Shown here: one piece after another, positions 24,058 through 24,183 of the stretch | How the letters are laid out: every line of letters starts with the position of its first letter | Position numbering within the stretch: position 1 is the first letter of the stretch | The notes under the pieces: model-generated | Databases searched by the model: none | Told to the model about the DNA's origin: nothing | What the model saw: the letters and a program-made list of their open reading frames with translations, nothing else | Assembly: GCF_003334765.1 (NCBI RefSeq) | Contig: NZ_QOWT01000042.1 | Strand: one strand, 5' to 3' | DNA length: 30,886 nucleotides | From: Escherichia coli | GTDB lineage: Bacteria > Pseudomonadota > Gammaproteobacteria > Enterobacterales > Enterobacteriaceae | Program-made: the position numbers and the translations under genes

Positions 24058-24103
24058 CGCGTCATCTCGCTCAAAAATCCAGATTTATAAAAGAAAAAAT
24101 GAC

Positions 24104-24133
24104 TGGCCAGCATCGCAACATGCTGGCCTTTTT
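24104..24133 (+). terminator. Hairpin plus U-tract between mprA and emrA (terminator/attenuator)
   Basis: 9-bp stem ggccagcat / atgctggcc (24104-24112 / 24119-24127), loop cgcaac, then ttttt (24128-24132). Confidence 0.6.
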
Positions 24134-24183
24134 GGCAAGCAGGTCGGCTCAGCCGATGAGTTAAGAAGATCGTGGAGAACAAT

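Follow-up and report, generated by a model that had tools for sequence, protein, structure and literature searches.

The hairpin and U-run at 24105-24133, between the repressor gene mprA and the pump genes emrAB of Escherichia coli, very probably form a Rho-independent terminator within the mprA-emrAB operon that is constitutive and leaky. All positions refer to the window, the whole stretch of 30,886 nucleotides of E. coli DNA that was analysed; a window coordinate equals the coordinate in E. coli K-12 MG1655 minus 2787243 (NC_000913.3; the stretch is byte-identical). The terminator itself has already been described, by Adams et al. in 2021 and in a later paper (PMC12704781), and because it is mapped and published, our finding confirms existing knowledge. 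The comparative parts are new: the conservation of the stem, a lineage difference in the U-tract, a second hairpin downstream, and a possible pairing opposite the Shine-Dalgarno (SD) sequence of emrA.

The mprA-emrA spacer and its published RNA ends

The segment 23400-24400 of the window is 100% identical to MG1655, and the locus was found in 5418 of the 5426 complete E. coli genomes. mprA and emrAB both lie on the plus strand, which agrees with the co-orientation stated in the sequence-only reading of this DNA, and the mprA-emrA spacer measures 126 nt. The genes and elements needed here are as follows.

23101-23436, plus strand: ygaH, open reading frame
23484-23504, plus strand: EmrR/MprA operator CTGTCGTTACTATATCGGCTG in the mprA promoter, an exact sequence match
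23527-24057, plus strand: mprA (emrR) coding sequence for the MarR-family repressor of the operon (b2684, NC_000913.3 2810770-2811300), with the TAA stop codon at 24055-24057
24090-24099, plus strand: A-rich tract AAAGAAAAAA, upstream of the stem and 5 nt apart from it
24105-24128, plus strand: terminator stem-loop (5' arm 24105-24113, loop 24114-24119, 3' arm 24120-24128)
24129-24133, plus strand: U-tract (T5) directly abutting the stem, with an in vivo RNA 3' end mapped at 24133
24184-25356, plus strand: emrA, with its ATG at 24184 (MG1655 emrA starts at 2811427)
about 25373-26911, plus strand: emrB, the pump gene together with emrA

PMC13053672 gives the operator sequence with reference to Xiong et al. 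2000, and the site at 23484-23504 is the sole documented control point of the mprA-emrAB operon.

The hairpin reads GGCCAGCAT-CGCAAC-ATGCTGGCC, flanked by AAAAGAAAAAATGACT on its 5' side and by TTTTT and then GGCAAG on its 3' side. Its stem consists of 9 perfect base pairs, six G-C and three A-U, closed by a 6-nt loop, and the T5 run is short, with five U followed by GGC. The earlier reading had placed the stem and a 5-U tail at 24104-24133. The G+C-rich 9-bp stem and the T5 tail stand as described, and the stem actually starts at 24105. Both of its distances need a small correction: the stem lies 47 nt, not 46 nt, after the mprA stop codon, and the emrA ATG lies 50 nt, not 51 nt, after the end of the T-run.

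The predicted fold of the intergenic region is dominated by this hairpin, whose folding energy is -15.5 kcal/mol on its own and -16.7 kcal/mol (z = -2.4) when folded within a 46-nt stretch. A terminator consensus scan picked it up on both strands; the match on the minus strand is weak and comes from the A-rich tract AAAGAAAAAA, where the T-run begins 6 nt past the stem. When both strands of the 30.9-kb window were scanned for perfect stems of at least 9 bp with loops of 3-8 nt and a tail starting with TTT and holding at least five T in eight positions, only two loci were found, at 24105-24128 and at 26920-26943, compared with a mean of 0.02 per window expected by chance from 100 dinucleotide-preserving shuffles. 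No Rfam family was matched at E <= 1 within 23300-24500.

Among the curated Term-seq 3' ends in Supplementary file 1 of Adams et al. 2021 (eLife, PMC7815308) is one at MG1655 2811376(+); it corresponds to 24133, the fifth and last T of the run. The flanking sequence given there is ATTTATAAAAGAAAAAATGACTGGCCAGCATCGCAACATGCTGGCCTTTT[T]GGCAAGCAGG, in a table layout of 50 nt, the 3' end and 10 nt that we checked on the thrL row. The entry belongs to the class 'orphan', has an average of 861 reads, which is close to the bottom of the list, and is present in the LB OD 0.4 sheet only, being absent from LB OD 2.0 and M63 (PMC7815308). The Term-seq check proposed in the sequence-only reading thus has a published 3' end at 24133, with low reads and in one condition. 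The lists of Adams et al. contain no minus-strand 3' end at 28113xx (PMC7815308), and their Supplementary file 2 contains no Rho-termination region with a coordinate starting with 28113 or 28114. The supplements of the SMRT-Cappable-seq study hold no entry for mprA or emrA (PMC6131387).

A PNAS 2025 paper on the sRNA UhpU named the mprA-emrA element a canonical Rho-independent terminator (PMC12704781). On the northern blot of that study, the main mprA isoform was about 900 nt in length (predicted 888 nt), not the annotated 3.5-kb mprA-emrAB RNA, and the 888-nt RNA was identified as ygaH'-mprA with a RACE 5' end within codon 49 of ygaH (PMC12704781).

23246, plus strand: approximate alternative transcription start in ygaH codon 49, from published RACE and coordinate arithmetic

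Codon 49 of ygaH occupies 23245-23247, and 24133 - 888 + 1 = 23246 falls within it; the 888-nt transcript therefore ends exactly at the U-run. The published 3' end and the dominance of the short mprA RNA together support the earlier suggestion that an intrinsic terminator limits read-through from mprA into emrAB. The terminator published for E. coli K-12 consists of the same nucleotides as the one analysed here, both by its 3' end (2811376(+) = 24133) and by the end of the 888-nt RNA. The previous study used it just to define the mprA transcript, with read-through, other genera and the downstream hairpin outside its scope (PMC12704781).

Conservation of the stem and variation of the U-tract

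We assembled a comparative set with one genome per species. It holds 80 loci whose MprA is at least 90% identical, and these represent about 25 enterobacterial genera. The mprA-emrA spacer was extracted for 79 of the 80 loci, and the 73 distinct sequences were aligned. Hardly any change is seen in the arms GGCCAGCA/TGCTGGCC, whereas the loop differs freely in both sequence and length (5-10 nt between genera). Across the 73 spacers the terminator stem is 95.6% paired, and three of its nine pairs have changed on both sides, for example to GGCCTGCAT/ATGCAGGCC in locus L074 and to AAGCC.../...GGCUU in loci L075 and L079. None of 500 column shuffles reached the observed covariation score, although the power of this comparison is limited among relatives as close as these (MprA at least 90% identical). 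The compensatory changes are supportive, rather than decisive, evidence that the element has been kept in evolution as an RNA stem. One locus of the set, L044 (CACSKA010000005.1), is labelled Chryseobacterium sp. 18061 and carries a typical enterobacterial mprA-emrA locus with an MprA 93% identical to that of E. coli; either contamination or a wrongly labelled assembly probably explains this.

Within E. coli, about half of the genomes have one or two base differences over 24090-24165. The polymorphisms seen were T24104C (e.g. in O157:H7), G24101A and G24143C, and the stem and T5 were untouched in the strains inspected. Between genera the U-tract differs. Among loci L001-L080, the T-run TTTTTGG occurs only in Escherichia and in three Kosakonia-like genomes. 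The other enterobacterial genomes, about 70 in number, have TTTCTGA (Salmonella, Citrobacter, Enterobacter, Klebsiella and most others) or, in a few cases, TGTCTGA. The interrupted run outside Escherichia suggests, as far as its sequence can tell, a leakier terminator there and a strength that would be specific to the lineage. We also considered a link between T5 and an upstream ygaZH. The genes ygaZH are present at all seven T5 loci and also at about 27 loci with TTTCT, and the T5 loci make up just two clades, so that the correlation is unusable.

Termination, read-through and the supply of emrAB mRNA

In the mechanism we propose, RNA polymerase would begin to transcribe mprA either from the mprA promoter, which MprA represses, or from the start within ygaH. 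The nascent 9-bp G+C-rich hairpin would fold about 47 nt past the mprA stop codon, and most complexes would be released at the U-run, leaving a monocistronic mprA RNA that ends at 24133. Polymerases that read through would enter emrAB, 50 nt downstream. Repressor mRNA would be in excess of pump mRNA, both arising from the same MprA-controlled promoters, and the two would climb together on induction. The data are compatible with the idea that the terminator sets how much repressor transcript is made relative to pump transcript. With such an element between the two, the textbook 'emrRAB operon' would yield mostly repressor-only mRNA.

The leak is best described as fixed. When the nascent RNA was cut at 24128 and given 70, 170, 270, 600 or 880 nt of upstream sequence, the pairs of the hairpin kept probabilities of 0.87-1.0 throughout, so that a competing antiterminator is not predicted in any of these contexts. 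The mprA stop codon, 47 nt before the stem, is presumably too far away for coupling to a terminating ribosome, whose footprint size puts 47 nt beyond its reach. The attenuation implied in the sequence-only reading is thus not borne out in a regulated form, given the lack of a predicted alternative structure and the distance of the stop codon. We rejected a regulated attenuator or riboswitch on these two grounds and on the lack of an Rfam match at E <= 1. The attenuators of trp, thr and pyrBI and the terminators of riboswitches resemble the mprA-emrA element in that a terminator hairpin stands upstream of structural genes. In contrast to them, mprA-emrA has neither a leader peptide nor a predicted antiterminator and would be a fixed leak instead of a switch. 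Partial terminators inside operons are known from the rplL-rpoB attenuator and from the rpsU/dnaG terminator in rpsU-dnaG-rpoD. In these cases, too, a hairpin with a U-run lies between co-oriented, co-regulated genes with the upstream gene expressed in excess. They differ in that the termination efficiency has been measured there, and in that the upstream gene of the mprA case is the operon's own repressor.

Most emrAB mRNA in E. coli probably comes from read-through, because the operator lies only upstream of mprA, because emrAB is derepressed in emrR mutants, and because of results from Dickeya. In a Salmonella delta-emrR strain, emrA was up 5.7-fold and emrB 5.9-fold (PMC6469979). In evolved E. 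coli mprA mutants, emrA rises alongside mprA (PMC7686311 supplement). In Dickeya, an RT-PCR product spanned the junction of emrR and emrA, and no EmrR-dependent promoter activity was seen for the region upstream of emrAB (PMC13053672). The short mprA RNA has been shown in E. coli itself; the evidence for read-through is indirect and comes from the co-derepression of emrAB in emrR mutants and from the junction RT-PCR in Dickeya. No plus-strand 3' end was listed at the emrB terminator by Adams et al. in LB at OD 0.4 or 2.0; this fits low levels of the uninduced emrAB transcript and is only suggestive.

An alternative model holds that the hairpin is an efficient full stop and that emrAB is transcribed mainly from a promoter of its own in or near the intergenic region, so that mprA and emrAB are separate units. 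We consider this model improbable. It does accommodate the northern blot, in which the short RNA and not the 3.5-kb RNA is the main mprA isoform (PMC12704781). A preprint on evolution under CCCP describes the spacer as one that 'includes promoter control sequences', giving no data for this, and reports six CCCP-selected mutations in the mprA-emrA intergenic region (bioRxiv 10.1101/392977). However, no promoter-like pair of hexamers is present on the plus strand of 24058-24183. A scan for sigma-70-like sites found none on the plus strand between 23567 and 24541, hence none in the spacer, although the scan is insensitive and also misses the known mprA promoter. The 50 nt that follow the U-run are G+C-rich and taken up by the second hairpin described below. 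An independent promoter is also difficult to reconcile with the derepression of emrAB in emrR mutants when the sole known operator lies upstream of mprA, or with the Dickeya fragment lacking EmrR-dependent activity and the RT-PCR product crossing the junction (PMC13053672).

The 3' end at 24133 was in all likelihood made by termination and not by trimming. Processing would mean that a longer mprA-emrAB RNA is cleaved downstream and that exonucleases then trim it back to a stabilising hairpin, which we regard as very unlikely. Term-seq maps steady-state 3' ends, so termination and 3' trimming are indistinguishable by that method; at 5 nt beyond the stem, the end is a little closer to it than the typical 7-9 nt, and the second hairpin just downstream could shield the 5' end of a cleaved emrAB fragment. 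Against these points, a perfect G+C-rich stem and a U-run that ends at the mapped 3' end are the signature of intrinsic termination, and it is not the stem alone but also the U-rich run, as TTTTT or TTTCT, that is conserved across genera. The authors who studied the mprA transcript likewise read the element as a terminator (PMC12704781).

That the inverted repeat serves instead as a protein-binding palindrome in DNA or as a bidirectional terminator or insulator, or is a chance or REP-like sequence, is extremely unlikely: the arms do form a perfect 9-bp palindrome and the minus strand also scores as terminator-like through the upstream A-tract, but arms kept by compensatory substitutions around a loop that varies from 5 to 10 nt between genera indicate an RNA stem and not an operator of fixed spacing, both neighbouring genes point the same way, no 3' end is listed on the minus strand at 28113xx and the minus-strand T-run starts 6 nt past the stem, the terminator sequence is single-copy in the 30.9-kb window, found at a median of one place per E. 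coli genome and orthologous at one locus, unlike REP/BIME elements, it has no Rfam match, and chance predicts the 0.02 occurrences per window given above.

The run of only five U followed by GGC, and UUUCU in most other genera, are possible limits, and the efficiency may be modest or dependent on the lineage. EmrAB-TolC is a clinically relevant efflux pump for multiple drugs and uncouplers, and MprA/EmrR also controls genes for capsule, motility and virulence. Mutations in the stem or the U-run would be a possible route to over-expression of the pump with the repressor intact, and this route may bear on the six CCCP-selected intergenic mutations. A frameshift allele, mprA*, conferred resistance to spent medium of P. 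aeruginosa, and a clean delta-mprA did not (PMC4672897). Both this result and the CCCP mutations may involve transcription through the mprA-emrA spacer. Apart from one large deletion, the mprA mutations tabulated in the supplements of Maeda et al. 2020 are all coding, none being intergenic, and papers on evolution in mouse IBD, on Reg-Seq and on delafloxacin concern the mprA promoter or coding region only. In the urinary-tract isolate E. coli M45 (L084, NZ_CP080119.1 52549-52994), an IS1 element is inserted right after TTTTTGG, at the equivalent of 24135/24136. Judged from its position between the terminator and emrA, this IS1 should either block emrAB or drive emrAB from the IS.

A second hairpin and possible pairing at the emrA ribosome-binding site

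On either side of the terminator hairpin lie further conserved elements.

24078-24086, plus strand: conserved box UCCAGAUUU, a candidate anti-SD sequence, from the minimum-free-energy fold, conservation, pairing probabilities and a shuffle control
24143-24157, plus strand: second conserved hairpin of 6 bp with a 3-nt loop, from the predicted fold
24167-24186, plus strand: emrA translation initiation region, block AAGATCGTGGAGAA, with the SD sequence GGAG at 24174-24177 and the ATG at 24184

The second hairpin lies 10 nt past the U-run and 16 nt before the emrA SD and is followed by no U-run. It is 98.2% paired across the 73 spacers, with compensatory change at two pairs and a loop of 3-5 nt, and the E. 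coli polymorphism G24143C breaks its closing G-U pair. This hairpin might act as a 5' stabiliser of a processed emrAB RNA. The initiation block AAGATCGTGGAGAA is nearly invariant in the aligned enterobacterial spacers.

The box UCCAGAUUU, conserved in most genera, has a predicted pairing partner in the sequence AGAUC-UGGA at the emrA ribosome-binding site, and the resulting helix would enclose both hairpins. The probability that the SD bases GGA are unpaired is 0.009 in the native RNA; it reaches about 0.7 in RNAs beginning at 24105 or 24134. Shuffling 24058-24104 300 times gave a mean of 0.48, with 4% of the shuffles at or below 0.05. The pairing between the box and the SD has a probability of 0.75-0.99 in most genera and is not predicted in the Klebsiella/Raoultella clade, where the conserved stretch AAATCCAGATTT (24075-24088) is replaced by TTTTTCTGGATTG. 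Because the Shine-Dalgarno side is invariant, this pairing is beyond testing by covariation. The box is also part of a small DNA inverted repeat, AAATC-CA-GATTT at 24075-24086, whose arms vary by genus (AAATC-CA-GATTT, ATATCC-A-GGATAT and TTTC-CA-GAAA) around a centre CCAG that is kept. A role of the inverted repeat at the DNA level would fit these sequences as well as a role of the box in RNA pairing.

A rather unlikely extension of these predictions is that the whole 126-nt spacer is one conserved structured RNA domain, in which the box would pair with the emrA ribosome-binding site at 24167-24176 in the read-through RNA. If this were true, the pump would be throttled twice, by termination and by sequestration of the Shine-Dalgarno sequence, and cleavage between the hairpins or loss of the box would free the SD. 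The change from UUUCU to UUUUU in Escherichia would then represent a lineage-specific tightening of the first layer.

In Enterobacteriaceae bacterium RIT714 (L019:3032-3220), a 63-nt insertion separates the conserved box from the terminator. The window's only other perfect hairpin with a T-run, at 26920-26943, separates the convergent genes emrB and luxS. For the minus strand, Adams et al. 2021 (PMC7815308) give a very strong 3' end at 2814159, with 208,906 reads; this corresponds to window position 26916.
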